Source: Deltaproteobacteria bacterium
GTDB taxonomy: Bacteria > Desulfobacterota > GWC2-55-46
Direction of reading: 5' to 3'
Length of the DNA stretch: 64,000 nucleotides
Assembly: GCA_016213015.1 (NCBI GenBank)
Contig: JACRCE010000011.1
Location: 10,586 to 74,585 of the forward strand
Position numbers and translations under genes: made by a program. Shown here piece after piece: positions 9,206-48,244 of this stretch (positions within the stretch are counted from its first letter, which is position 1; each line of letters starts with the position of its first letter). Under the pieces are notes generated by a model. That model made no database searches and was not told the DNA's origin. It saw only the letters and a list, made by a program, of their open reading frames with translations.

Positions 9206-11485
9206 TTACTTAATCCCTTTGAGCGTAAGCCTTGCCTCCTCCGCGCCCTTATGCTTGTCGTTGAGCTTCAATGACCGCGTCAATTCTTCCTTTGCAAGAC
9301 GCATGTCGCCCTTCTTGAAGTAGGCCATGCCGAGGTGATAGCGGATCATGGCGTCGTCAGGCTGTTTTTCGGCGGCCTCTTTGATGTGCGTAACGGCCTT
9401 CAGGTACGTCTGCTTTTTATAGTATATCCAGCCTAACGTATCCGATATTCCCGCGTTGTCAGGGAGTTCTCCCTTTGCGGTTTCGGCAAGCGAGAGCGCC
9501 ACGTCGATATTGCCGTTGCCTTCGGCGTACAGCCACGCAAGGTTATTAGCCGCAGGCGCGAACTTAGGGTTTATCTCCAGCGCCTTCTTGTAATTCTTAA
9601 TAGCCTCGTCCGTCTTGCCTTGCTTTTCATATATGAGTCCGAGAAGCATGTACGGAGGCAGATGATCCGGCCTCTTGACGGACGCCTCGGCGTAGTGCTT
9701 CGCGGCCTTGTCGAGATCGCCTTTCTGGGCGTAGACGTTGCCGAGGTCTATATAGGCGTCTATGAAGTCGGCCTTTGTTTCAATCGCCTTCAAGAGCGCA
9801 TCCTCGGCGCTCTTGAAGTCCTTCAGGTACAGGTACGTCCTCGCAAGGATATGCTGGAAGACGGGATTTTTGGGCGAGACGGCGATCTGCGCCTTTATCC
9901 TCTCGACGGCCTTGTTGTTTTCCTTGTTGGACAGGTGTATCGCCGCTATCATGCCGAGCACGTCGGCGATATCGGGGTTGAGGGAAAGCGCCTTTTCAAA
10001 CTGCTCAAGCGATGCCCTGTTGTTCTTTTGCAATTGATACAACAGACCGAGTTTTGCGTACCCCCTCGGGTCCTTCGGCATAGCGACGATGAATTTTTCA
10101 AAATGCCCGCGCGCCTCAGCGGTCTTCGACTGTTTAAGGAGGATGTCTCCCGCAAGGAGGTTTGCGGCCGGATTCCCCGGATTTTTTGCCAGCACCTTCC
10201 CTGCCTCTTCCAGCGCCAATTTATAATCCCCTGACGCCGCGTGGATGGATGCAATGGCCAGGCGAGCGCCGGAGGCGGCCGGGTTCAACTTCAACGCCTC
10301 GGCATACTCCGACTTTGCGGCCTGACTATTTCCAACCGCCTGATACGCGGCGCCAAGGAAGTAGTGAGACTCGGCGGCGCGCGGCTCTTCCTTGATGGAA
10401 GCGCTCAGGTTTTCGGCCGCCTCCTTCGGCTTGTTGGCCGTAAGGAGCAGCCTGCCGTTAAGGTAGAGCGCATAAGCGTCCTTGGGGTGTTTCTTTAAGA
10501 TGGCGGCTATGCGCTCCTCCGCCTCCTTTGTTTTGTTCAACTCAAGGAACAGATTGGCAAGACTTTTCTCGATTGGCAGCGTCTCGGATGCCTTTTCCAA
10601 TCCCTTTTTAAGGGTCGCTTCCGCGTCCGACACCCTGTTGGTCGCCGCATAGAACTCGGAGAGCATCAGGTACGCGGCCGGGGCGGCCGGCTTGAGTTCG
10701 ATTAAAGAGAGGAAGGTCTTGTCGGCATCGGTCATTTTCCGCACCGCTATGTAAAAATTGGCAAGGGCCGCGAGCGCGTCCGGATTTTTCGGGTTCATCT
10801 CAACGGCCTTTTTCATCTCCGCTTCGGCCTCGGTCTTGTTGCCGCTGCTGAGGTACAGATTCGCAAGCGCAAGACGCGGCTCGATGGCATCGGGCTTGAC
10901 GCCGAGCGCCTTCCTATAATGCTTCTTGGCCGACTCGACATCCTTGCCGGCAAGATAAATGGCCGCGGCGGCCATATAGTGCGTAGGTTCGGTGGGGCCT
11001 GACTTGAGAATATCCTCTATCATCGATATGGCTTCCCGCGTCTTACCCTTACCGGCTAAGGCCGAAGCAAATAAAACCTTGCCTTCGACGTTCTCCTTTT
11101 CCTTATTAACGACAAGTTCGGCCTTTTCCTTCGCCTTATCATACTCCTGCGACAACAGATATAGTTGACCGATCTTGAGTTGCGCGTCAATCAGGCCGGG
11201 ATTTAAGTCAACCGCCGTTGAAAACTCGCGGAAGGCAAGTTGAAGGTTCGTGACGTTGCCGAGCTTCAGGTACGCAAGCCCGAGCTTATAGTGAGCCTCG
11301 GCGCTTTTCGGGTTTATCTGCACGGCATTCTTGAACTCTATGGCCGCTTCCCTATATTGAGACTGGGCGATGTACTCATCCCCTTTTTTAATGTGGCCTG
11401 CAAGTTTTTTCTCGGGGCTTGCACCGCAAGCAACGACAAAAAACGTTATACACACTATAACAAGTATATTTTTGAGAACTGTCAT
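9206..11485 (-). CDS. TPR-repeat lipoprotein (PEP-CTERM-system PrsT-like?)
   Basis: This is a ~760-aa protein built of consecutive TPR units. It starts MTVLKNILVIVCITFFVVACG, which is a signal peptide plus lipobox. The ATG at 11485 is preceded by GGAGGAG. It is adjacent to tRNA-Glu and a PEP-CTERM gene. Confidence 0.75.
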   Translation of the reverse strand: MTVLKNILVIVCITFFVVACGASPEKKLAGHIKKGDEYIAQSQYREAAIEFKNAVQINPKSAEAHYKLGLAYLKLGNVTNLQLAFREFSTAVDLNPGLIDAQLKIGQLYLLSQEYDKAKEKAELVVNKEKENVEGKVLFASALAGKGKTREAISMIEDILKSGPTEPTHYMAAAAIYLAGKDVESAKKHYRKALGVKPDAIEPRLALANLYLSSGNKTEAEAEMKKAVEMNPKNPDALAALANFYIAVRKMTDADKTFLSLIELKPAAPAAYLMLSEFYAATNRVSDAEATLKKGLEKASETLPIEKSLANLFLELNKTKEAEERIAAILKKHPKDAYALYLNGRLLLTANKPKEAAENLSASIKEEPRAAESHYFLGAAYQAVGNSQAAKSEYAEALKLNPAASGARLAIASIHAASGDYKLALEEAGKVLAKNPGNPAANLLAGDILLKQSKTAEARGHFEKFIVAMPKDPRGYAKLGLLYQLQKNNRASLEQFEKALSLNPDIADVLGMIAAIHLSNKENNKAVERIKAQIAVSPKNPVFQHILARTYLYLKDFKSAEDALLKAIETKADFIDAYIDLGNVYAQKGDLDKAAKHYAEASVKRPDHLPPYMLLGLIYEKQGKTDEAIKNYKKALEINPKFAPAANNLAWLYAEGNGNIDVALSLAETAKGELPDNAGISDTLGWIYYKKQTYLKAVTHIKEAAEKQPDDAMIRYHLGMAYFKKGDMRLAKEELTRSLKLNDKHKGAEEARLTLKGIK

Positions 11486-12070: not shown

Positions 12071-12853
12071 GTGCAAAAAATGAAAAAACAACTTGAAACC
12101 ACGACAATCTTCCTGCTCGCATTCGTTGCGTTTGCATTAGCGGCGTTCATACCGGCTCAGGTTCAGGCACTCCCTACCTTGCAGCTTGACATAGCAAATG
12201 GAGTGTACGACCCTGTGAGCAAGACGATCGTTTCGTCCGCCGACAAATTTACGTTGTATGCATTCCTATTGCCTGGAAAAACTCAGGCGCCGGTAACCGG
12301 CGCATACTATATCTCCGCGGCGCTCGTTGCTACGAATGGCAAGACAATAGGGGCAGGCAACTTCGGCAGCTTCTCCTTCAACGGCGTTCAAAAGAACGTT
12401 ACCAACGATATGGTCTTTGGGACGCCGCCGCTTGAGGCCAATCTGGCATTTGACCCAGGCGATCTTTCCAAACACGGCATATACCCGACGTACTTCAACG
12501 AGTTTTCATTCAAGTTCAACTCCAACAACGAAACGGCTCAATACAACACGCAAGACAGGGCCAAGGCAGGTACGCCGATCAACATCGCGCCGAATCCTAA
12601 CAACGGCAACATGTATTACGCGGCGTTTTCGGTGGATACGACGCTTCTCGCGCCCGGCTATGCCATACATTTCGACCTGTACAACGAGAAGGTCAGACGC
12701 GGGGATACCGATGTAAATCTCTTTGCTCCCTTCTCGCACGACGCTCAGTCAAGGGCAAAGGTGCCGGAGCCTGCCACGGCGCTGTTGATTGGCGCCGGAT
12801 TTGCCGGTCTGTGGCTACATGGCAAAAAACAGAAGGGCACCTCTAAAAATTAG
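12071..12853 (+). CDS. PEP-CTERM sorting-domain secreted protein
   Basis: The ORF has an N-terminal signal peptide and a C-terminus VPEPATALLIGAGFAGLWLHGKKQKG (PEP motif, hydrophobic helix, basic tail). The last residues TSKN and the TAG stop are encoded by the terminal inverted repeat of repeat element B1. Confidence 0.8.
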   Translation: MQKMKKQLETTTIFLLAFVAFALAAFIPAQVQALPTLQLDIANGVYDPVSKTIVSSADKFTLYAFLLPGKTQAPVTGAYYISAALVATNGKTIGAGNFGSFSFNGVQKNVTNDMVFGTPPLEANLAFDPGDLSKHGIYPTYFNEFSFKFNSNNETAQYNTQDRAKAGTPINIAPNPNNGNMYYAAFSVDTTLLAPGYAIHFDLYNEKVRRGDTDVNLFAPFSHDAQSRAKVPEPATALLIGAGFAGLWLHGKKQKGTSKN

Positions 12854-12970
12854 AGATTTTTTCCGCAATCAAGGAATGGCGAAAATAAAAAGTGGAGCAT
12901 ATATGTGAATATGTGAGCATTTTTATTTTAGCCATGACACAGAGCCCGGAAAAAAGATCAATTTTTAGAG
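12842..12970. mobile_element. MITE-like element, family B, copy B1 (intact, ~129 bp)
   Basis: It has imperfect ~24-bp TIRs TCTAAAAATTAGAGATTTTTTCCG ... CCGGAAAAAAGATCAATTTTTAGAG. The interior is homologous to the other B copies. Confidence 0.6.
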
Positions 12971-13074
12971 GTGGCCATAAAATAAGCGCTTGATTTTTAA
13001 GAAATCTGCCGCTATAATGCCCAAAAAGCATGTAGGTTGAAAATCCCGTACTAATAAGGTGAACGGATTAACGA

Positions 13075-18416: not shown

Positions 18417-18470
18417 GGGTTGAAAGACGGTTCAGAGATAACCATAAACCGTCTTCCAACCGTCTTTAAC
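18417..18470. repeat. hairpin repeat, family E (GTTGAAAGACGGTT ... AACCGTCTT..AAC)
   Basis: This inverted repeat lies between purD and purE and is followed by the AGGAGG RBS of purE. A second copy is at 18967-19012. Confidence 0.6.
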
Positions 18471-18480
18471 AGGAGGCCAT

Positions 18481-18981
18481 ATGTCTTCAAAACCGGTCGT
18501 AGGCATTCTCATGGGGAGCGATTCAGACCTGGCCGTAATGCGGGAGGCGGAGAGCGCGCTCAAGACGCTTGGCGTGCCATGCGAGATGACCATATCGTCG
18601 GCGCACAGGACGCCTGAGAGGACCGGCGAGTATGCGAAAACGGCCGTAAAGCGCGGCATAAAGGTCATAATCGCCGGGGCCGGAAGCGCGGCTCATCTTG
18701 CAGGGTTCGTTGCCGCGCATACCCCCTTGCCCGTAATCGGCGTGCCCATCGATTCAGGTCCGCTCAAAGGGCTTGACGCCCTTCTTGCAACCGTTCAGAT
18801 GCCTGGCGGAGTGCCAGTCGCATCGATGGCGCTTGGCAAGGCAGGGGCAAGGAACGCGGGCATCTTCGCGGCCCAGATACTTGCCGTATCGGACAAGGCG
18901 CTGGCAAAAAGGCTTGCCTCATATAAAAAGACGCTCGCAAGACAGGTTGAGGAAAAGGCAAGGAAGTTGAAAGACGGTTGA
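18481..18981 (+). CDS. purE: N5-carboxyaminoimidazole ribonucleotide mutase
   Basis: The 166-aa ORF has the signature GILMGSDSDL...IAGAGSAAHL. Confidence 0.9.
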   Translation: MSSKPVVGILMGSDSDLAVMREAESALKTLGVPCEMTISSAHRTPERTGEYAKTAVKRGIKVIIAGAGSAAHLAGFVAAHTPLPVIGVPIDSGPLKGLDALLATVQMPGGVPVASMALGKAGARNAGIFAAQILAVSDKALAKRLASYKKTLARQVEEKARKLKDG

Positions 18982-19012
18982 GAAATAACCGTGAACCGTC
19001 TTTAACCATGAA
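18967..19012. repeat. hairpin repeat, family E copy 2
   Basis: The sequence is GTTGAAAGACGGTTgagaaataaccgtgAACCGTCTTTAAC. It overlaps the 3' end of purE. Confidence 0.6.
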
Positions 19013-21913: not shown

Positions 21914-21953
21914 TGCGGTTATCCGTTAACGGTTAACGATGAAGGCATAAAAG

Positions 21954-25629: not shown

Positions 25630-25707
25630 GGCAATTATGTGGGTCTTTCCAAACAAGGCGTCTTATAAAAATATCTTGTCCGCGTCGAGTTGTCCAGCCC
25701 TAAGTAA

Positions 25708-25787
25708 GACGGTTATCTGTGGACGGTTATCGGTTTAAGGATAATTATTCTTTCACCTGCACCGATAATTGATAACCGATAACCGTC
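25708..25787. repeat. palindromic intergenic repeat, family D, copy D1 (GGTTATCGG / CCGATAACC arms)
   Basis: The sequence is gacGGTTATCtgtggacGGTTATCGGTTTAAGGATAATTATTCTTTCACCtgcaCCGATAAttGATAACCGATAACCgtc. Confidence 0.65.
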
Positions 25788-25904
25788 TTTGCTGATTTTA
25801 CAGACCGGCCTTTGTGTGGTAGGATTGAGCATTCGATCGGCATAACTCAAACTGTAAGCACACCGGACAAACCTGACGGCTTGGATAAAGGATAACAAAT
25901 TATT

Positions 25905-27635: not shown

Positions 27636-28397
27636 ATGTCCATCAAACCCAAGGCGGCCTTTTTCTCGTTCACCTGTTGCGAGGGGTGCCAGCTCATGAT
27701 ACTGAGCTGCGAGAAGGAACTGCCGTCCATACTCGAACATATCGAGATAGTCAACTTCCGCGAGGCCATGACCGAACGGAGCGAGGACTATCAGGCGGCC
27801 TTCATCGAAGGCTCCGTCAGCAAACGTGAAGAAATCAAAAAACTCAAAAAGATACGTGAAAAGGCAAAGGTGGTGGTTGCCCTTGGCGCGTGCTCCGCAA
27901 TTGGCGGACTTAATTGCCTTAAAAACCGCTTCCAGATGGACTATCTAAGGAAAGAGGTCTACGGGCAGGACGGCCTGAAGTTCAAGGCCTTTGAAACCAT
28001 ACCGGCAAGGCCCATTGACTCGATAATCCATGTCGACTACTATATACACGGCTGTCCCATACCCAAAAAAGAGTTCCTGTCCGTCCTGACCTCCCTGCTC
28101 ATGGGAAGCGTCCCACGCATCGTGAACCACCCGGTTTGCGTAGACTGCAAGATAGCGGGAAATATCTGCGTGTTCGAGAAGGGCTTAACCTGCCTCGGCC
28201 CGATAACAAGGGCCGGATGCGACGCGGTCTGTATTACTTACGGATGCGTATGCTGGGGATGCAGGGGGCCGGTCGACGACCCGAACACCGCGGCGCATAA
28301 GGAAACGCTTCTAAGACACGGCCTTTCAGCCGATGACGTATCGCTCGCTTTGAGTCTTTACGGCGCTCACAAAACAAAGACTACCTCTAAAAATTAG
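27636..28397 (+). CDS. [NiFe]-hydrogenase small subunit, group-3 (MvhG/VhuG-like)
   Basis: The ORF has the N-terminal FSFTCCEGCQ motif and distal [4Fe-4S] Cys clusters (CVDCK...C, CxxGCxxxC...CWGCRGP). The TAG stop at 28395-28397 lies within the terminus of repeat B2. Confidence 0.85.
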   Translation: MSIKPKAAFFSFTCCEGCQLMILSCEKELPSILEHIEIVNFREAMTERSEDYQAAFIEGSVSKREEIKKLKKIREKAKVVVALGACSAIGGLNCLKNRFQMDYLRKEVYGQDGLKFKAFETIPARPIDSIIHVDYYIHGCPIPKKEFLSVLTSLLMGSVPRIVNHPVCVDCKIAGNICVFEKGLTCLGPITRAGCDAVCITYGCVCWGCRGPVDDPNTAAHKETLLRHGLSADDVSLALSLYGAHKTKTTSKN

Positions 28398-28654
28398 GGA
28401 AGCTCTGATTAATTCGCCAATCCGTCATTCTCGCTCCGCGAAGCAATCTCGTCTTCAAGGAAATCAATAAGTTACGAGATTGCCGCGCCGCAAAAGCGCG
28501 GCTCGCAATGACAAATAAGAATTAATCAGAGCTTCCTTAGATAGTTTTCCCGAGGTCAAGGAAGGGCGAAAATAAAAAGCGTAGCATATATGCAATATGT
28601 GAGCATTTTTATTTTAGCCATGACGCAGAGATCGGGAAAAATAGCAATTTTTAA
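28385..28654. mobile_element. family-B MITE-like element copy B2 carrying a nested family-A MITE
   Basis: The B TIRs are cctctaaaaattag ... gggaaaaatagcaatttttaa. The interior is homologous to B1 (agcatatatgcaatatgtgagcatttttattttagccatgac). Confidence 0.6.
28398..28536 (+). mobile_element. MITE family A, copy A1 (139 bp)
   Basis: It has perfect 17-bp TIRs GGAAGCTCTGATTAATT / AATTAATCAGAGCTTCC and is flanked by a 4-bp direct duplication TTAG (28394-28397 and 28537-28540). Confidence 0.8.
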
Positions 28655-29944
28655 ATGAAAAAAGACCTCCACATAAAGATAGATGAAATAACCCGCGTCG
28701 AGGGACACGGCAACGTGGTCATTGACGTAAAGAAGGGCGTGGTTAAGGATGTCGCTCTTGAGATAATCGAGTCCCCCCGGTTTTTCGAGATGATGTTAAG
28801 GGGCAGAAGATACGACGAGGCACACCACATCATGTCGCGCATCTGCGGCATCTGCGCGGTGAGCCATACGTCGGCCTCTCTCAAGGCCATAGAGTCGGCA
28901 ATGGGCATTCGCATCTCAAGGCAGGCGACGCTATTGAGGAAACTCGCCTTTGCGGGCGAGATGCTTCAGAGCCATATACTGCATCTGTACTTTCTCGTAT
29001 TCCCTGACTTTTTAGGCGAAGGCTCGATAGTGCCGATATTGAAGACCCATCCTGAGATAGCAAGGAAGGGTCTTGAACTCAAGAGGCTCGCCAACGAGAT
29101 ATGCGCCGTCGTGGCCGGCAGGCACATCCACCCGATATCGCTCGCCCCCGGAGGCGTGGCGCATCTGCCGACCGCTCAGGAACTTAAAAAACTCCGCTCC
29201 AGCCTCGATGCCTCCTTTGACGACCTTGAGTTCACTTATGACCTGCTCTCAAAGGTTCACGTGCCGGAGTTCGAGAAAAGGCGCGACTTCGTGTCGCTGA
29301 AGTCGCGGGGAGAGTACGGCGCTTACGCCGGAGAGCCGGCATCAAGCGAGGGCTACGCCATTACGGCCAAGACCTACACGAAAAAGATTCGGGAGTACAC
29401 GGTTGCCCACTCCGCGGCAAAGCAGGCAAGAAGTCCGAAGGGCGCCTTCATGGTAGGCGCCCTCGCAAGGGTCAACAACAACTGGAAAAGGCTCTCACAG
29501 CGCTCGCGCGCTATAGCCGAGAAGGCCGGATTGAGGCCGCCATGCTTCAATCCGTTTCACAACAACACGGCCCAACTCGTGGAATGTTTTCAGATGACCG
29601 GGGACGCGATACGGATGATAGACGCCCTGCTTGAGGCCGGATTGAAGCCGGAGCCGTTGAAAAAACCCAAGGGATGGGGCATCGGCATAGGCATCGTCGA
29701 GGCCCCGCGAGGGACGCTCTACCACGAATACCGGATAAACAGGGACGGCTTTGTCGAGGCCGCGGAGTGCGTCATACCCACGGCGCAGAATCTAAGGGCT
29801 ATCGAAGAAGACCTCCGCGCCTTCGTGCCGCTCATAATGGATAAGCCGAAAGAGGAGATACGGCGTATAGTGGAGACGCTCGTAAGGGCCTATGACCCGT
29901 GCATATCGTGTTCGACGCATATAATGGACGTAAGATTCGTTTAG
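28655..29944 (+). CDS. [NiFe]-hydrogenase large subunit, group-3
   Basis: The ORF has the N-terminal RICGICAVSH motif and the C-terminal DPCISCSTH motif, followed by a short IMDVRFV tail. The first Cys is Cys and not Sec, so this is NiFe, not NiFeSe. The ATG directly abuts the end of MITE B2 and no SD is visible. Confidence 0.9.
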   Translation: MKKDLHIKIDEITRVEGHGNVVIDVKKGVVKDVALEIIESPRFFEMMLRGRRYDEAHHIMSRICGICAVSHTSASLKAIESAMGIRISRQATLLRKLAFAGEMLQSHILHLYFLVFPDFLGEGSIVPILKTHPEIARKGLELKRLANEICAVVAGRHIHPISLAPGGVAHLPTAQELKKLRSSLDASFDDLEFTYDLLSKVHVPEFEKRRDFVSLKSRGEYGAYAGEPASSEGYAITAKTYTKKIREYTVAHSAAKQARSPKGAFMVGALARVNNNWKRLSQRSRAIAEKAGLRPPCFNPFHNNTAQLVECFQMTGDAIRMIDALLEAGLKPEPLKKPKGWGIGIGIVEAPRGTLYHEYRINRDGFVEAAECVIPTAQNLRAIEEDLRAFVPLIMDKPKEEIRRIVETLVRAYDPCISCSTHIMDVRFV

Positions 29945-29953
29945 AGGGAAAGA

Positions 29954-31075
29954 TTGCGTATAAACATCGCTAAAGCGCCGCTCCTTGAGCGGATACTCCA
30001 GAGGCAGATAGTCTCTTCCAAATCCGAAGACGTTGACCTCAAGGCCGTGCTCCGGGAGATACTCCTTCGGGCAAACAGGTTCGTGCCCTCGGAGTCGGGT
30101 TCCATACTGCTTGACGCGCCCGCCGGGGATGAAACCGACAAGGCGCTTGCCAAGCTCTACTTTGTGGCATGCTTCGGCAAGGGTTCCGTCGCTCTCGTCA
30201 ATACCACGCTGCCTTCAAGCACGGGTATAGCGGGCAGGACATACTCGACAGGAAAGCCGTACATAAGCAAAAAGGTGTCCAGAGACAAATGCTTCTACCC
30301 GGGCCTCGACAAAAAAACAAAGTTCTGCACGAAGTCCATCGTATGCGCGCCGATAAAATTGAAAAAACATACAATCGGCGTAATAGAGTTGATCAACAGG
30401 CTCTCCGACATAAACTACACGTCAAAGGATTTGTCGCTCCTTAAGATATTCGCCGAATACACCTCAAAGCTCATCCAGAACGCGCTTGACGCAAAGACCT
30501 TCGAAATACTCTCGAAAAAGGACAACCTCACGTCGCTTTACAACGACCGGTACTTCTACAATCAGCTTACAAAGGAAACGGCGCGCTCAATCAAGCGCGG
30601 GACGGACTTGAGTCTCATCTTCATGGATCTGGACAGGTTCAAGGAGGTCAACGACACCTACGGACACCTTGCCGGAAGCCGGGTGCTGACCGAGGTCGGC
30701 TGTATAATAAAAGATACGCTTCCCACCGCTGATTCAAGAGGCATTCGCTACGGCGGGGACGAATACGTCGTGATACTGCCGGGGTTGAATCTCGACGAGG
30801 CGGCCGACTACGCGGAAAAACTGAGAATGGCCATTCAGGAGTTCACGTTCCTGACGAAAAGGCTCCACGCAAACGCCAAACCCATAATGCTCAAGGGTCA
30901 TATAACAAGCTCGATCGGGGCGGCCTCTCTCATGGAGAACGTGGAGGAGGCCGGCAGCGTCAACGAGATACGCGACAACCTGATAAAACAGGCGGACACG
31001 GCCATGTACAAGTCCAAACAGAACGGCAGAAACCTTATAACAGTTGCCCCGGCCGGAGGCAAAAAGAAAAGCTGA
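29954..31075 (+). CDS. GAF-domain diguanylate cyclase (GGDEF)
   Basis: The ORF has a TTG start with gagggaaag upstream. An N-terminal GAF domain is followed by RYGGDEYVV (intact GGDEF-type A-site). The upstream inhibitory-site motif RxxD is not clearly seen. Confidence 0.8.
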   Translation: MRINIAKAPLLERILQRQIVSSKSEDVDLKAVLREILLRANRFVPSESGSILLDAPAGDETDKALAKLYFVACFGKGSVALVNTTLPSSTGIAGRTYSTGKPYISKKVSRDKCFYPGLDKKTKFCTKSIVCAPIKLKKHTIGVIELINRLSDINYTSKDLSLLKIFAEYTSKLIQNALDAKTFEILSKKDNLTSLYNDRYFYNQLTKETARSIKRGTDLSLIFMDLDRFKEVNDTYGHLAGSRVLTEVGCIIKDTLPTADSRGIRYGGDEYVVILPGLNLDEAADYAEKLRMAIQEFTFLTKRLHANAKPIMLKGHITSSIGAASLMENVEEAGSVNEIRDNLIKQADTAMYKSKQNGRNLITVAPAGGKKKS

Positions 31076-31077
31076 AA

Positions 31078-31167
31078 ACGGTTATCAGTTATCGGTAGTC
31101 GGTTATCGGTTTGAAAACAATGATTCTTTCACCTTCGCCGATAACCAATTACCGATTACCGATAACC
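31078..31167. repeat. family D palindromic repeat, copy D2
   Basis: The sequence is aacGGTTATCagttatcggtagtcGGTTATCGGTTTgaaaacaatgATTCTTTCACCttcgCCGATAAccaattaCCGATtaCCGATAACC. It has the same orientation as D1. Confidence 0.65.
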
Positions 31168-31544
31168 TTCTTCACCAGCCTCAACTCCTCAGGCAACCTC
31201 ATCGGCTTGCCGTCATTTCCGACCGAGGCAAGCGTTACGCTGCCCTCAACCAGAGTCTTCTCCTGCTTGAACAAGACGTGTTCAAACGTAATGGTCGCGC
31301 CCGTTGCGCCTGAGAGACGCGTATCGAGGATGAGCAGGTCGTCATATCTCGCCGGTGCGATATATCGCGCCTCCACGCTCCGCACCACGAATATCACGCC
31401 TGAGGTGTGCAGTTCTCCAAGCGAAACACCCCGCTCTCTCAACAACTCCGTCCTGCCGCGCTCGAAGTATCGCAGATAGTTGGCGTAGTAGACCACGCCT
31501 CCGCAGTCGGTGTCCTCGTAATATATCCTTATCGGTATACGCAT
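31149..31544 (-). CDS. acyl-CoA thioesterase, YbgC/4HBT family
   Basis: The 131-aa ORF begins MRIPIRIYYEDTDCGGVVYYANYLRYFERGR, a hotdog-fold signature. Confidence 0.8.
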   Translation of the reverse strand: MRIPIRIYYEDTDCGGVVYYANYLRYFERGRTELLRERGVSLGELHTSGVIFVVRSVEARYIAPARYDDLLILDTRLSGATGATITFEHVLFKQEKTLVEGSVTLASVGNDGKPMRLPEELRLVKKVIGNR

Positions 31545-32877: not shown

Positions 32878-32880
32878 TAG

Positions 32881-33062
32881 CGCGGTTATCGGTGGACGGT
32901 TATCCGTTATCGGATTAAGGATAAGGAAAACCACCTCACCCTACCCTCTCCCCCTTGGGGAGAGTAGAAAAAAACGAAACTCTTTCTTAGGGAAGCAATT
33001 AATCAGAGCTTCCTTAATTATCTTTTTCCTTCACCGATAACCGTCAACTGATAACCGATAAC
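32881..33062. repeat. family D palindromic repeat, copy D3, expanded by an internal insertion containing a family-A MITE remnant
   Basis: The D arms are gcGGTTATCGGtggacGGTTATCcGTTATCGGaTTAAGGATAA ... TTATCTTTTTCCTTCACCGATAACCgtcaactGATAACCGATAAC. The interior carries the hairpin ctctcccccttggggagag and, at 32991-33013, GGAAGC+AATTAATCAGAGCTTCC, flanked by TTAG/TTAA. Confidence 0.6.
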
Positions 33063-33083
33063 AGCCTTTACATATATGCGGCC

Positions 33084-33956
33084 TTGCTGTACCATATTTT
33101 TATGGTACTAACAGCGGTTGTCTTACTTGTCGTCCTGCTCGTCATGCCGGATGCCGCCGATGCGTGGGGGCCGGCGACGCACCTTGAACTCGCGCTCACG
33201 GCGCTCAACAACGCCTCCGTCGTTTCCGCACCGGTCAGGTCGCTCATCGAACATTTCCCTTACGACTTCCTTTACGGCAACATAAGCGCAGACATCTATG
33301 TCGGTAAAAATCTCGTTGAGGAGTTGAAGCACTGCCATAACTGGAAGGCCGGTTTCGCCCTCCTGAAAAACGCAAAGTCCGGCTCTCAGAGGGCGTTTGC
33401 CTACGGGTATCTCTCCCATCTCGCGGCGGACACCGTGGCTCATAATCACTTCATCCCCGAAAGGATGCTTCGCTCGTTCTCCGCAAGGACATTGAGGCAC
33501 GTCTACTGGGAGATGCGGGCCGACGCCCTGGCCGACAAACGTGTCTGGCGCCTGCCGAAAAGGATCGCGGCTCAGGCCGCTGAAGACAACGACGCCCTGT
33601 TGAACGCAACTATTGAGGGCGCTCCGTTATCGTTCAGAACGAACAAGACCATATTCTCAAGCATCATGAGCATCAACAGGATGAAGCACTGGCACAGGAT
33701 GCTCGATCTGCTCTCCGTTACGTCAAGATGGTCTCTCGACAAACAGGAAAGGGAGTTGCACTTCAACGACTCCCTTGACGCCATAATGGGACTTCTCAAA
33801 TCCCCGCTCAAGGCGCCTTGCCTCAAAAAAGACCCCATCGGCAGACTCAACCTTGCCCTTGCCTCCACGGCGAGAAAACGCCTGAGGGCAATGAAAAAGG
33901 CCGGCCTCGCATGGGAAGAGGCGCTTTCAGAGGAACTCGCCAAAGTAGCGCCCTGA
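33084..33956 (+). CDS. secreted zinc-dependent phospholipase C / S1-P1 nuclease-like protein
   Basis: The ORF has a signal peptide, then AWGPATHLELA...HLAADTVAHNHF His-rich zinc-ligand motifs. Family assignment is tentative. Confidence 0.5.
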   Translation: MLYHIFMVLTAVVLLVVLLVMPDAADAWGPATHLELALTALNNASVVSAPVRSLIEHFPYDFLYGNISADIYVGKNLVEELKHCHNWKAGFALLKNAKSGSQRAFAYGYLSHLAADTVAHNHFIPERMLRSFSARTLRHVYWEMRADALADKRVWRLPKRIAAQAAEDNDALLNATIEGAPLSFRTNKTIFSSIMSINRMKHWHRMLDLLSVTSRWSLDKQERELHFNDSLDAIMGLLKSPLKAPCLKKDPIGRLNLALASTARKRLRAMKKAGLAWEEALSEELAKVAP

Positions 33957-34320
33957 TAAAAATTAGAAATTTTTTTCGAGGTCAAGGAAGGGCGAAAATA
34001 AACTTGTCCTCGTGGTATCTATCGAGCAAAGCGGAGCATATAATTAAGGAAGCTCTGATTAATTCGCCGACCCGTCATTCTCGCTCCGCGAAGCAATCTC
34101 GTCTTCAAGGAAATCAACAACTTAGAGATTGCCGCGCCGCGAAAGCGCGGCTCGCAATGACAAAATAAGAATTAATCAGAGGTTCCTTAATATATGAACA
34201 TTGGGCCAACCGCAAAAGCGCGGTTAGGCCCTGCAAGGAAGCTCACGCTCTCTTTGAAGCCCGTCTTATTGCGCCCTGACGCCCGTAACGTAACAGTCGG
34301 GGAAAATAGCAATTTTTACC
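33957..34320. mobile_element. family-B element copy B3 (long variant) carrying a nested family-A MITE at a different internal site
   Basis: The left TIR is aaaaattagaaatttttttcgaggtcaagg and the right TIR is cggggaaaatagcaatttttacc. Its terminus overlaps the TAA stop of coaBC (34316-34318). Confidence 0.55.
34048..34186 (+). mobile_element. MITE family A, copy A2 (139 bp)
   Basis: The TIRs are GGAAGCTCTGATTAATT / AATTAATCAGAGGTTCC (one mismatch). It is flanked by the 4-bp duplication TTAA (34044-34047 and 34187-34190). Confidence 0.8.
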
Positions 34321-35500
34321 GCGACTTGAGCCTTACCACCCTGTCCAGTATCCTGTCCGCGATATCATCCTTGTTGAGAGGCGGAACCGCCTCAATCTCG
34401 CCGTCCCTATTGATTATCAGCACCTCGTTGGTCGCGCCGGCGAGACCGGCTGGGCCGTTCGCAACCACCATGTCGAGATTCTTGTCTTTAAGTTTCTTCC
34501 TCGCGTTCTCTTCAAGGTTTTCGGTCTCGAGCGCGAAACCGACGAGGAACTGTCCCTTCTTTTTCCTGCCCATCTGCTTCAATACGTCCTCAGTCCTTTC
34601 AAGCTCAACGCTCAGCGTGCTTGCGTCCTTCTTGACCTTCTCGGAATAGCTCTTTTTCGGCCTGTAATCGGATATCGCCGCGGCCATTATCACCAGAGTG
34701 GACTGCGGGTAGTACCTTACCGCGGCCTCGTTCATCTCCTCGGCGGTAGAGACGCTCACGCAGGTTACGCCGGACGGCCTCGGCAGATCTGTGGGCCCGC
34801 TTATGAGCACGACCTCCGCCCCTCTTCTTTTGGCCGCCCTCGCAAGGGCGTAGCCCATCCTGCCGGACGAGGCGTTGGACACGAAACGCACCGGGTCTAT
34901 GGCCTCCCTTGTAGGCCCGGCCGTAACCAGCGCCTTTTCACCCTTCAAATCCTTGCGCGTCAGCGCCTCGCAAGCGGCCTCAAATATCTCCTCAACCCCG
35001 GCAAGCCTGCCCTTGCCGATGCTTCCACACGCAAGCGCGCCCTCGCCGGGTCCCACGAACTTATAGCCGACGGATAGCAGCCCTTCGACGTTGCCCTTTA
35101 CAATCGGGTTTTCCCACATGCGATCGTTCATGGAAGGCGCTATGAGCACCGGGCACGCCGCGGCCATTATTATCGTGGTAAGCGGATCGTCGGCAATGCC
35201 TGACGCGATCTTGCCGATGACGTTTGCCGTCGCGGGAGCAACGATGATCAGGTCGGACTTTTGCGCCAGTTCGATATGATTGATTGAAACATCGCTTCCC
35301 CGCTCGAAAAGAGAGGTTGAGACAAGGTTCTTCGCGAGCGTTGAAAGGCTCAAAGGCGTTATAAACTCCTGAGCCGAGCTTGTCATCACGGGCAAAACCG
35401 TTGCCTCGCCCTTGACAAGCAACCGGACAAGCTCAAGCGCCTTGTACGCGGATATGGCGCCGCTAACGCCCAAGACTATCCTCTTATCCTTGATTATCAA
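34316..35500 (-). CDS. coaBC: bifunctional phosphopantothenoylcysteine decarboxylase / phosphopantothenate-cysteine ligase
   Basis: The 394-aa ORF has an N-terminal flavoprotein domain (RIVLGVSGAISAYKA) and a C-terminal CoaB domain. Confidence 0.9.
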   Translation of the reverse strand: MIIKDKRIVLGVSGAISAYKALELVRLLVKGEATVLPVMTSSAQEFITPLSLSTLAKNLVSTSLFERGSDVSINHIELAQKSDLIIVAPATANVIGKIASGIADDPLTTIIMAAACPVLIAPSMNDRMWENPIVKGNVEGLLSVGYKFVGPGEGALACGSIGKGRLAGVEEIFEAACEALTRKDLKGEKALVTAGPTREAIDPVRFVSNASSGRMGYALARAAKRRGAEVVLISGPTDLPRPSGVTCVSVSTAEEMNEAAVRYYPQSTLVIMAAAISDYRPKKSYSEKVKKDASTLSVELERTEDVLKQMGRKKKGQFLVGFALETENLEENARKKLKDKNLDMVVANGPAGLAGATNEVLIINRDGEIEAVPPLNKDDIADRILDRVVRLKSR

Positions 35501-36135: not shown

Positions 36136-36288
36136 AATACTCCCTGCCTTATGAATATATGCAAGCGAGGAACGTCAGAACAAAGCAGACCAAGGCGCGA
36201 CGAGAGTGAGGAGCGAGGCGCGCTTTTTCTGTGCGCCGCAACGACGAGCCGGGAGCAACGCAGGTATGCGAAGTTATGACGTTCCTCG

Positions 36289-38802: not shown

Positions 38803-38822
38803 CCGTATGCCCCATTCCGAAG

Positions 38823-38911
38823 CCGATAATCGGTTGACGGTTATCAGTGAAGGTGAACGAATAATTATCCTTAAACCGATAACTGATAACCGTCTTATAA
38901 CCGATAACCGT
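38823..38911. repeat. family D palindromic repeat, copy D4 (inverted orientation)
   Basis: The sequence is ccGATAAtCGGttgacGGTTATCagtGAAGGTGAAcGAATAATTATCCTTAAACCGATAActGATAACCgtcttataaCCGATAACCG. Confidence 0.65.
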
Positions 38912-38917
38912 TCTTAC

Positions 38918-39715
38918 TTACAACGTCTGCATTACCCATGTTACCCTGCCGACAATCGCAACTTCTCCGGCGCTCGCCGTAAGCTCCGGGAACTGCGGGT
39001 TATCGGGCCGCATAATCAACGCATTATTGCCCTTGAATATGCGCCGCACTGTGACGCTTCCGCTTGCCGTCCTTACGATGTATATCGCGCCGTCCCTTAG
39101 CGTTAAATCCCTATACTGTATCCCGACGATTGCGCCGTCTCTTATGGTGGCCTCCATGCTGTCGTCCGACACGCTAAAGGCAACCGGGCCCGCCTTTGCC
39201 AGAAGCTCTGAAACGATCAGCGTATCAACCGGTACGCGCAGGAGCGCGTTAGCAGGGTCTTTCAACAACTCAAGCCTGTACACGTTGATCGAGATCATCT
39301 CTTGCGGGGAGCGCTCGTCTTGGACGCCGCCCCCGGCCTCAAGGCCGCGCCAATCTATCACCGGCTCCTCTGCCCTCGCGTATTGATTGAGCGCGGCATC
39401 AACCACGGCGTACATGCCTTCATCGTTGACGTGTCCATACTGCCCTTGTGCCCGCGCAGGGACCTGCGAAGGCATAATCCCCTTGCCTGACATAAGCCAC
39501 TCCATGTTAACGCCTAACTTCAGGCATATTAACTCGGTTAACGACGCGCCGGGAGACCTCTTGCCCTGCTCAATCATGGTTATATAAGCCGGAGATACGT
39601 TCAATAAGGCCGCAAATTCAGCGCGGTTAAGCCTGCCGCGTACGATGCCGATCCTGCTTGCGATGCTTGACTTCCGACGGCCTTCCGAACCGTTGTTAAT
39701 TCTTTTTCTTGACAT
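38918..39715 (-). CDS. XRE-type HTH + S24 (LexA/CI-like) peptidase repressor
   Basis: The N-terminal HTH is AEFAALLNVSPAYITMIEQGKRSP, followed by a long linker. The C-terminal S24 fold (...SMEATIRDGAIVGIQ...) has a conserved Ser-Lys dyad region. Confidence 0.7.
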   Translation of the reverse strand: MSRKRINNGSEGRRKSSIASRIGIVRGRLNRAEFAALLNVSPAYITMIEQGKRSPGASLTELICLKLGVNMEWLMSGKGIMPSQVPARAQGQYGHVNDEGMYAVVDAALNQYARAEEPVIDWRGLEAGGGVQDERSPQEMISINVYRLELLKDPANALLRVPVDTLIVSELLAKAGPVAFSVSDDSMEATIRDGAIVGIQYRDLTLRDGAIYIVRTASGSVTVRRIFKGNNALIMRPDNPQFPELTASAGEVAIVGRVTWVMQTL

Positions 39716-44294: not shown

Positions 44295-44324
44295 AGCCCT
44301 CCTTGCCACATGCGATTATGATAG

Positions 44325-44462
44325 GGAAGGTCTGATTAATTCTTATTTTGTCATTGCGAGCCGCGCTTTCGCGGCGCGGCAATCTCTAAGTTGTTGATTT
44401 CCTTGAAGACGAGATTCTACGCTGCGCGAGAATGACGGGTCGGCGAATTAATCAGAGCTTCC
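44325..44462 (-). mobile_element. MITE family A, copy A4 (138 bp, inverted orientation)
   Basis: The TIRs are GGAAGGTCTGATTAATT / AATTAATCAGAGCTTCC. It is flanked by the 4-bp duplication ATAG (44321-44324 and 44463-44466) and lies about 30 bp upstream of the glyQ start. Confidence 0.8.
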
Positions 44463-44597
44463 ATAGGCAAACATAGCAAAAAAAAGCGCGAAAGTCATCA
44501 TGGAAATAATCAGGCGGCTTATACCTCCGGGACGCACAAAAACAACGTTCAGGGTGTATACTGTAACGTCGTCAGGATTACCAAAAGGATACCCACT

Positions 44598-47696: not shown

Positions 47697-47767
47697 CCTG
47701 AACAAATTTTGAGTTTTTCAACAAATTGGAGGTCCATGCGATACTCATTCCAGCCTTTTATTGGTTG

Positions 47768-48238
47768 CCTTTAAAAATTAGGGAGGCTCTGATTAATTCT
47801 TATTTTGTCATTGCGAGCCCAGCACCACTTTGGATTATGAAAGCGTGTTCCTTGGCAAATTCCTTCGTGCAACAAAGTGGTGCTGGGTTGATTTCCTTGA
47901 AGACGAGATTCTACGCTGCGCGAGAATGACGGATCGGCGAATAAATCAGAGCTTCCTTAGATAGTTTTTCCGAGTTCAAGGAAGGGCGAAAATAAACTTG
48001 TCCTCGCGTGTATTTAGCGGGGAAAGCGCAGCATATACGTTAATATGTGAGCATTGGGCTACCTCCCCCATTCCCCCCCTTAGTAAGGGGGGGAATGGGG
48101 GAGGTAGCCTCGGCAAGGAATTGCTCATTTTGAAAGCGCGTCTTATCGCGCCTGCGGCGCGAGCCGACGGGCAACCGATGTATTTTCGCCCTGACACCCG
48201 TAACGCAATCGGTCGGGAAAAATAGCAATCTTTAGAGG
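47768..48238. mobile_element. composite repeat: family-B long variant (B4) with nested A3 and a 53-bp perfect palindrome
   Basis: The B TIRs are cctttaaaaattag ... cgggaaaaatagcaatctttagagg. The interior is homologous to B3. The palindrome is ggctacctcccccattccccccc-ttagtaa-gggggggaatgggggaggtagcc at ~48057-48109. Confidence 0.55.
47782..47956 (+). mobile_element. MITE family A, copy A3 (175 bp; internal hairpin module replaced)
   Basis: The TIRs are GGAGGCTCTGATTAATT / AAATCAGAGCTTCC. The TSD is TTAG (47778-47781 and 47957-47960). The internal hairpin is CCCAGCACCACTTT...AAAGTGGTGCTGGG instead of CCGCGC...GCGCGG. Confidence 0.75.
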
Positions 48239-48244
48239 CAGCCA

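Follow-up and report, generated by a model that had tools for sequence, protein, structure and literature searches.

The mobility of Tourist elements depends on PIF/Harbinger transposases, which are eukaryotic relatives of IS5, and these elements prefer TTA/TAA in AT-rich DNA. The nested Tourist and Stowaway MITEs of maize and rice are said, in work of Jiang and Wessler in the Plant Cell of 2001, to reveal a target preference. In bacteria, IS1111 inserts into QMITE2 of Coxiella burnetii (PMC5896051), and insertions of IS elements into REP sequences have been reported (Tobes & Pareja 2006, as related in PMC3184786). The same source gives, after Chen et al. (2008), the features of Chunjie, a MITE of Geobacter uraniireducens: a length of 178-235 bp, TIRs of 21 bp and direct repeats of 9 bp. 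For IS5 itself, mutation-accumulation lines of E. coli gave YTAR as the target motif of de novo insertions (PMC5009759). Here we describe two families of MITEs, A and B, from an uncultured groundwater deltaproteobacterium. The window, by which we mean the whole 64-kb stretch of DNA that was analysed (54% G+C), contains B in several copies, and three of these have a copy of A inside them. We think it very probable that these are layers of unrelated MITEs, and that the IS5-type element A hit B three separate times through a target preference, the nesting being documented in one genome (n = 3).

Element A is a MITE of the IS5 type, 138-175 bp in length and without an ORF. Its TIR is GGAAGCTCTGATTAAT, from which the ends of the complete window copies depart by 0-1 mismatch (8/8 ends). 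With at most one mismatch allowed, the A end occurs nine times in the window, in four complete elements and as one isolated end (32998-33013). The copies and the remnant to which the isolated end belongs are as follows.

28398..28536, + strand: A in B2, 139 bp, with the TSD TTAG at 28394-28397 and 28537-28540
34048..34186, + strand: A in B3, 139 bp, at the centre of B3, with the TSD TTAA at 34044-34047 and 34187-34190
44325..44462, - strand: solo A, 138 bp, with the TSD ATAG at 44321-44324 and 44463-44466
47782..47956, - strand: A in B4, 175 bp, with a different, 66-bp central hairpin and the TSD TTAG at 47778-47781 and 47957-47960
32990..33013, - strand: A remnant, 23 bp (GGAAGC followed by AATTAATCAGAGCTTCC), with TTAG/TTAA flanks, inside a family-C repeat at 32878-33063

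The solo A (44325-44462) and the 23-bp remnant (32990-33013) are additional to the copies that were first noted. The repeat that hosts the remnant belongs to a third palindromic family, C. Perfect 4-bp TSDs flank all of the complete window copies of A (4/4), namely TTAG twice, TTAA and ATAG. Recognisable IS5 sequence is limited to the first ~18-20 bp of the element, and the interior is made up of unrelated hairpin modules. The RNA fold predicted for the A in B2 has -59.8 kcal/mol (z = -7.8), and the z values of A folds are -7.8 and -4.1. None of the A or B elements wholly contains an ORF of at least 100 aa, and no transposase gene was found within the 64-kb window.

Element B is a genuine family of hairpin-forming MITEs of ~142 bp, which also includes long variants. 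The window contains four copies.

12835..12976, + strand: B1, an intact short B of 142 bp, with flanks AGAA/ATAA; the TTAG at 12850-12853 is free
28379..28653, + strand: B2, a short B with an A; the right outer arm (~9 bp) is absent
33958..34317, + strand: B3, a long variant of B with an A; the outer ~10 bp are gone at both ends and the TTAG at 33963-33966 is free
47763..48243, + strand: B4, a long variant of B, 302 bp without A, with an A; both outer arms are kept

The losses of arms in B3 (both ends) and in B2 (right end) all stop at the same internal boundary. A motif scan of the window found the ends of B four times and its core four times. With A and one copy of the duplication removed, the four copies align along their full length with 79-87% identity. 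The similarity therefore extends beyond the AT-rich termini, and the possibility that the B copies are AT-rich sequences alike only by chance, which the earlier note had kept in mind, is refuted. The four copies listed in that note stand and their boundaries do not, as in an alignment with copies from MAGs the true ends lie 7-8 bp farther out. These ends are GGCTGCCTCTAAAAATTAG...CAATTTTTAGAGGCAGCC, and GGCTGCCTCTAAAAATTAG recurs in inverted form at the other end of the element. On any longer partner element the end of B would be expected to read GGCTGCCTCTAAAAATT. B1 folds into one long hairpin (-60 kcal/mol, z = -10.3), and it provides the final codons and the stop (T-S-K-N-TAG) of the ORF at 12071-12853; stop codons are given to two genes by B.

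A 19-nt query from the B core was searched against 185,579 species-representative genomes, a set to which the source genome does not belong. The scan returned 66 loci, and full B copies were present in 17 of them, all from five related MAGs labelled 'Deltaproteobacteria bacterium'. These 17 loci hold 19 copies, with 72-95% identity to the window copies, so that the total is 23 copies in six genomes. As far as seen, B occurs only in uncultured deltaproteobacteria that form a small clade. Among the 12 copies in which both ends are present, 5/12 have perfect 4-bp TSDs (TTTA, TTGT, TTTC, GAAA and TTAA), where ~0.05 perfect would be expected by chance, and a further 4/12 match at 3 of 4 bases; no TSD is recognisable around B4. 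These TSDs are A/T-rich but not YTAR. They were therefore probably not made by the A enzyme, and the transposase of B, to judge from these duplications, is probably a distinct one. An autonomous partner of B was found neither in the fetched loci nor among PLSDB plasmids, in which a search with the B end gave chance matches only, and a scan of all loci returned no long element with B ends.

The genes next to B2 and B3 are the following.

27636-28397: NiFe hydrogenase small-subunit gene
28655-29944: NiFe hydrogenase large-subunit gene, with B2 and its A in between the two subunit genes
33084-33956 and 34316-35500: convergent genes flanking B3

The solo A is located between glyQ and a DUF4149 gene. 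A protein with 100% identity places the window in an NCBI MAG with the locus tag HY886_, whereas an exact search with the hydrogenase large subunit gave no match. An independent Logan assembly contig from the same sample (L192) is 99.97% identical to the window, and both the junction of the left part of B4 with A and the solo-A junction are reproduced in it. These junctions are therefore not an artefact of a single assembly. The L192 assembly ends within A, on both sides. Orthologous sites were read in contigs of close relatives with 83-92% nucleotide identity to the window. At the solo-A locus, one relative (L195) has a single GCGATTATGATAG, which is the empty site of what in the window is ATAG-A-ATAG. 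The B4 locus is occupied in three relatives (L193, L194 and L195) by 54-64 bp of unrelated spacer, with no B. In two (L189 and L191) the hydrogenase genes at the B2 locus overlap, leaving zero spacer, and in two (L189 and L190) the B3 locus has 13 bp, versus 360 bp in the window, between identical flanks.

The breaks in B2 and B4 both follow an identical ...AAAAATTAG, and TTAG is duplicated there; B3 is broken at an internal TTAA, which is likewise duplicated. The TSDs of A consist of B sequence, and B was therefore already present when A inserted; the sequences thus indicate that B came first and A later. The earlier note had read the locus as nested MITEs with A inside B and an ordered history, and had placed A at the same TTAG in B2 and B4 and at another internal TTAA in B3. 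Both readings hold, as the positions can be read in the sequence with their duplications and as some copies of B have a single, intact TTAG. Copies free of A at the TTAG position, for which a check had been suggested, are B1, the TTAG of B3 and 19/19 of the MAG copies. All of the latter retain a single TTAG-equivalent site (TCAG in a few), and an A was found in none of them (0/19).

The exact 18-nt end of A, GGAAGCTCTGATTAATTC, was used as a query against metagenome contigs and is present in at least 120 of them. Among the loci listed, most are elements of 98-241 bp that are closed by the inverted end and have very different interiors; B was seen in none of these listed loci (at least 120). 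Relatives of the 139-bp window subtype of A are present in five contigs, at 74-80% identity. Perfect 4-bp TSDs flank 42/83 metagenomic A-type elements (window copies excluded), and 35 of these 42 TSDs are YTAR (TTAA 19, CTAA 8, TTAG 6 and CTAG 2), a motif that equals that of E. coli IS5. In one contig (L082) the exact A end, with a CTAA flank, is followed by an ORF that is truncated at the contig end. Over 63 residues this ORF shows 59% identity with E. coli InsH (E = 3e-25), and it matches NCBIfam NF033581 (IS5) with E = 1.5e-12. Two further contigs, L197 and L198, were reached as homologues of the L082 ORF fragment. They hold a complete element of 1,169 bp with GGAACCTCTGATTAAT and GGAAGCTCTGATCATT as its ends and CTAA/TTAA as its flanks, and its InsH-like frame, which has one frameshift, shares 44-53% identity with E. 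coli InsH over residues 12-312. An IS5-family element on a plasmid of Pseudomonas antarctica has the end GGAGGCACTGATTAATTC, identical to that of A at 16/18 bases, flanks TTAG/TTAA and a transposase that scores 308 bits with NF033581. The end of E. coli IS5A, GGAAGGTGCGAATAAG, has GGAAG in common with A and matches it at 11-12/18 bases. Between A-like ends, then, there is an InsH-type DDE transposase (NF033581; DUF772 + DDE_Tnp_1). When 50 one-ended metagenome matches to A were screened for a transposase, the adjoining ORFs were ordinary genes, and tblastn was positive in L082 only. These matches indicate that autonomous, transposase-encoding elements with ends like those of A exist in other genomes, and we infer that A may have been mobilised in trans by a transposase of the genome studied here.

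A target profile was derived from 42 metagenomic A-type sites and symmetrised, and the window was scored with it after the removal of A (63,378 positions). The profile consists of YTAR with 64-74% A/T at positions -6..-2 and +5..+9 and ~50% farther out, in loci with 49% A+T overall. The three occupied sites in B rank #1, #2 and #3 among the 63,378 window positions, and the unoccupied TTAG sites of B3 and B1 rank #4 and #9. The ATAG of the solo A is a poor site (rank 427), and the preference is thus not absolute. This ranking holds for five profile widths, and when the flanks only are scored the occupied sites rank 1, 2 and 4 of 271 YTAR sites. The comparison supports the view that what A prefers would be a generic IS5-type YTAR with ~5 A/T-rich flanking bases, and not B as such. 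Site-preferential targeting of the B terminus had been proposed for this locus; the preference is borne out by the ranks, and a recognition specific to B is not. A appears to have landed in B repeatedly because B holds the region's best match to the AT-rich target of A-type elements. Since a profile from unrelated metagenomes predicts the exact sites, the nesting needs no special mechanism. The profile is drawn from insertions that have survived in nature, and its AT-rich flank signal could partly reflect survival in intergenic DNA. The harmlessness of an insertion into a dead element therefore probably contributes to the presence of A in B too, and the relative weights of targeting and survival are our own judgement.

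Several other explanations may be weighed against repeated targeted insertion. One of them, already considered in the earlier note, is that A inserted into B once and that the resulting B+A composite multiplied as a unit, with B2 and B4 as its descendants. The insertion point and the TTAG duplication of B2 and B4 are identical, and the 40 bp of B adjoining A contain 2 differences. This is contradicted by A itself, which at the same TTAG has the opposite orientation in B4 to that in B2. Moreover, the A in B2 is nearer to the A in B3 (95.7% identity) and to the solo A (93.4%) than to the A in B4 (81.8%, that is, subtypes 82% alike), and a diagnostic GCGCAGCGTAG-AATC variant is common to the A in B4 and the solo A. 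The A copies of B2 and B4 also have different central modules, and their hosts are a short and a long B, respectively. Many A-free MAG copies of B have the TTAGATAGTTTT variant. The opposite orientation, the different A subtype and the different B variant together argue for separate insertions, and the sequences indicate three independent A-in-B events and no propagated composite, which we regard as extremely improbable. It might instead be that A enters any YTAR and that B is a neutral safe haven left after selection and not a favoured target. The intergenic space of the window is tiny, and in relatives the genes at these places overlap or are 5-13 bp apart, so that there are few harmless insertion sites, and insertions of IS5 in E. 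coli are biased toward non-coding DNA (PMC5009759). Yet A has used the same one of several YTAR sites in B twice, the flank preference in the metagenomes is local (±6 bp) and not regional, and the flank-only ranks speak for targeting. Selection is compatible with targeting and a safe-haven effect probably contributes; that it accounts for the nesting in place of targeting is unlikely.

It is also conceivable that the A transposase reads DNA structure, that is, the hairpin or cruciform of B, as IS110/IS1111 types do on REP or QMITE2 palindromes. The hairpin of B is very stable, the A of B3 lies at the palindrome centre, a fourth A, the remnant, is within another palindromic repeat (family C), and 7/77 metagenomic A-type elements have unusually strong inverted-repeat flanks where ~1 would be expected, a weak excess. 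On the other hand, the A sites in B2 and B4 are close to the base of the hairpin and not to its tip. The majority of metagenomic A-type sites are without palindromic context, in a test that is insensitive, as the nested cases of the window score at background in it because A is far from the B centre. The sequence profile by itself predicts the sites in B, and the partner is of the DDE IS5 type, for which targeting of a sequence motif is established (PMC5009759). We therefore consider recognition of structure to be very unlikely. There is hardly any chance that A and B are conserved functional non-coding sequences, such as regulatory RNAs or terminators, and not mobile at all. Their strong secondary structure, their regular placement at gene ends and the stop codons that B supplies to two genes would be in agreement with a function of this kind, but the target duplications, the presence and absence of the elements at orthologous sites and the transposase-bearing relative with the same ends all contradict it. 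In Rfam, the whole window gave only 2 tRNAs at the gathering threshold, and positions 28300-28720 gave no match at E ≤ 1. No promoter-like or terminator-like site was found inside B2 and its A, and the sole terminator-like match lies outside the elements, on the opposite strand.

Repeated insertion of A through its target preference, the explanation that we favour, suggests a simple course of events. B arrived first, as a near-perfect hairpin of ~142 bp with GG... ends and 4-bp TSDs, landing in very short spacers near stop codons. A would be derived by deletion from an insertion sequence of the IS5 group, or at minimum have the same ends as one. An InsH-like DDE transposase presumably acts in trans, binding the GGAAGCTCTGATTAAT ends and making a 4-bp staggered cut at YTAR, and this enzyme would favour ~5 A/T-rich bases on either side of the motif. 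In a genome with 54% G+C the best sites of this kind are those offered by B, namely TAAAAA-TTAG-ATAGTT in its inverted repeat and ATATAA-TTAA-TATATG at the centre of B3. A therefore entered B three times, twice at one TTAG and in opposite orientations. Insertion into an already non-functional element would be harmless, and this would help the inserted copy to persist.

The variability of both elements is also suggestive of an exchange of parts. Two features of the long B variants, neither of which is assigned to a strand, are relevant here.

34203..34230: hairpin tip of B3 (GGGCCAACCGC...GCGGTTAGGCC), at the same place as the long palindrome of B4
48057..48109: perfect palindrome of B4, with 26-nt arms and 1 nt between them

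The earlier description of B3 and B4 as long variants with interchangeable hairpin cassettes is correct, and the arms of the B4 palindrome, then given as 23 bp, have the length listed here. Another MAG has a free-standing hairpin to which the central module of the A in B4 is similar. This likeness, together with the differing tips of B3 and B4, indicates that modules are exchanged. The 13 bp at the B3 site of the two relatives, TCAGGGCTGCCTC, match the outer arm of B at 9/9 positions, and the chance of such a match is estimated at ~4e-5. A simple slippage deletion was considered for this remnant and rejected, as the closest microhomology model leaves 2 surplus bases. The remnant can be read as duplication, terminal remnant and duplication. 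We speculate, tentatively and with considerable doubt, that B is composed of modules (an arm pair GGCTGCCTC/GAGGCAGCC, a body and a replaceable tip) and that TCAGGGCTGCCTC in L189 and L190 is an excision footprint; the symmetrical loss of both B3 arms in the window does not follow from the footprint reading. If true, the footprint would be natural evidence of cut-and-paste excision for a bacterial MITE. The modular reading of B, if true, would describe a serially nested repeat 'ecosystem' in which the AT-rich ends of MITEs are safe landing pads that divert IS5-type insertions from genes.

A limited literature search found no description of families A and B. They are two undescribed MITE families, and their mechanism is ordinary for IS5-group elements. 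What the locus adds is a case of bacterial MITE-in-MITE nesting that has been worked through and its cause identified, with two new nested families and a hot spot that is predictable; it is a tidy example and no new kind of system, and the current understanding of transposons is not overturned. A represents a single branch of an IS5-type group that is very widespread and that keeps its 18-bp end in many environmental bacteria while its interior is swapped; B is restricted to a clade of groundwater deltaproteobacteria. Elements of both families break assemblies and generate spurious ORFs. They can also alter operons: two hydrogenase subunit genes, which overlap in relatives, are split by B2 with its A. 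For related MAGs, the pattern of occupied and empty sites serves as a relative clock.

The closest bacterial parallels are IS1111 in QMITE2 and IS in REP, and the closest parallel overall is the nests of Tourist and Stowaway in cereals. The cereal nests are reportedly numbered in hundreds, are eukaryotic and have 3-bp duplications, whereas those described here are bacterial, have 4-bp duplications and are three in 64 kb. In the IS1111/QMITE2 and IS/REP systems a small palindromic repeat is repeatedly used as a landing site, as it is here, and occupied and unoccupied copies order the events in the same manner. The incomer in those systems is an IS110/IS1111-type IS of full length, which targets a specific palindrome. 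Here the incomer A is a MITE of the DDE IS5 type, and what it prefers is a short motif with A/T-rich flanks and not a structure specific to B. Chunjie, as described in PMC3184786, resembles the A and B elements in being deltaproteobacterial, in having very stable hairpins and in lying within an operon and overlapping gene ends. Given the 9-bp repeats reported there, A and B, which have 4-bp duplications and different ends, are therefore neither of them Chunjie. Nor is A or B a REP/BIME, these being RAYT-associated G+C-rich palindromes of ~35 bp with a GTAG head and no TSD, versus 130-300 bp, AT-rich ends and 4-bp TSDs. In the IS5 group, full-length relatives of 1,169 bp code for an InsH-like protein, whereas A itself has 138-175 bp and no ORF. 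It also differs from IS5 of E. coli in its host, an uncultured deltaproteobacterium, and in its interior of unrelated hairpin modules. What A has in common with IS5 of E. coli (InsH) and with the IS5 group are its GGAAG ends and its 4-bp YTAR TSD.

In addition to A (138-175 bp, IS5-type) and B (a hairpin element of ~142 bp with long variants), the two MITE families of the window, a third palindromic repeat family, C, is present, with units CGGTTATCGGT / ACCGATAACCG. Its members in the window are as follows.

25706-25795, family C copy
31075-31173, family C copy
32878-33063, family C copy
38820-38918, family C copy
18419-18456, short family C relative
18966-19003, short family C relative
21916-21948, short family C relative

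The orthologous sites in L189 and L190, contigs of close relatives, are without the C copies of window 32878-33063 and 38830-38916, and relatives of family C are also found in two other contigs of this kind, L191 (1361-1457) and L193 (6127-6180). The centre of the copy at 32878-33063 is enlarged by ~96 bp, and this extra sequence contains the hairpin CCCTCTCCCCC...GGGGAGAG together with a 23-bp A remnant between TTAG/TTAA. Insertions of A-type elements have therefore occurred in family C too.

At window 36137-36287 there is an insertion of 151 bp, bounded by the inverted ends GAGGAACGTCAGAAC... / ...GTTATGACGTTCCTC, versus 5 bp in L189 and L190; this is probably one more small TIR element. In L193 (792-833, orthologous to window 44321-44466) a different insertion, of 42 bp and flanked by a 14-bp duplication, TGCGATTATGATAG, lies at the exact ATAG used by the solo A of the window (44325-44462). 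At the site of B3 (window 33958-34317), L189 (15148-15160) and L190 (15073-15085) have only 13 bp, TCAGGGCTGCCTC, which match the outer arm at B's left end, and it is exactly this arm that is missing from both sides of B3. The 13 bp may be an excision footprint or a sign of separable modules. All four B copies (12835-12976, 28379-28653, 33958-34317 and 47763-48243) share one orientation, on the + strand, which with n=4 is not significant.

Two unrelated ORFs, those of a PEP-CTERM protein and of the NiFe hydrogenase small subunit, receive identical final codons and stop (T-S-K-N-TAG) from B1 (in the region 12835-12853) and B2 (in the region 28379-28657), respectively. The hydrogenase small- and large-subunit genes overlap in relatives (ATGA / ATGCCGGTAA) and are 257 bp apart in the window through B2 and its nested A. 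The truncated end of B2 directly adjoins the large-subunit ATG, and no obvious ribosome-binding site precedes this ATG. A recombination or operon-replacement breakpoint adjoins B2, because similarity to the closest relative begins 36 nt inside the large-subunit gene (window ~28655-28691, L189 ~10001-10037) and because the subunits differ in identity: the large subunit shares 89.5% identity with its L189 counterpart, while the small subunit shares only 42% with L189 and 68% with L191.

Both ends of L192, an independent Logan assembly contig from the window's own sample, fall within A copies. Short-read assemblies are therefore broken by A, and the source genome probably holds multiple copies of it. 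Among the matches listed, metagenomic elements with A-type ends (L067-L186) form length clusters at ~98, 110, 130, 141, 151 and 161 bp, and their interiors are unrelated G+C-rich hairpins, for example GTAGGGTGCGCCGTGCGCACC, CCCCTCTCCC...GGGAGAGGGG and GTCATTGCGAGC. The 66-bp central hairpin of the A copy inside B4 (window 47816-47890) shows 76% similarity to a hairpin that stands alone in an intergenic region of a related MAG (L049, 2098-2178). This likeness suggests that A elements capture hairpin modules, or that such modules insert into A.
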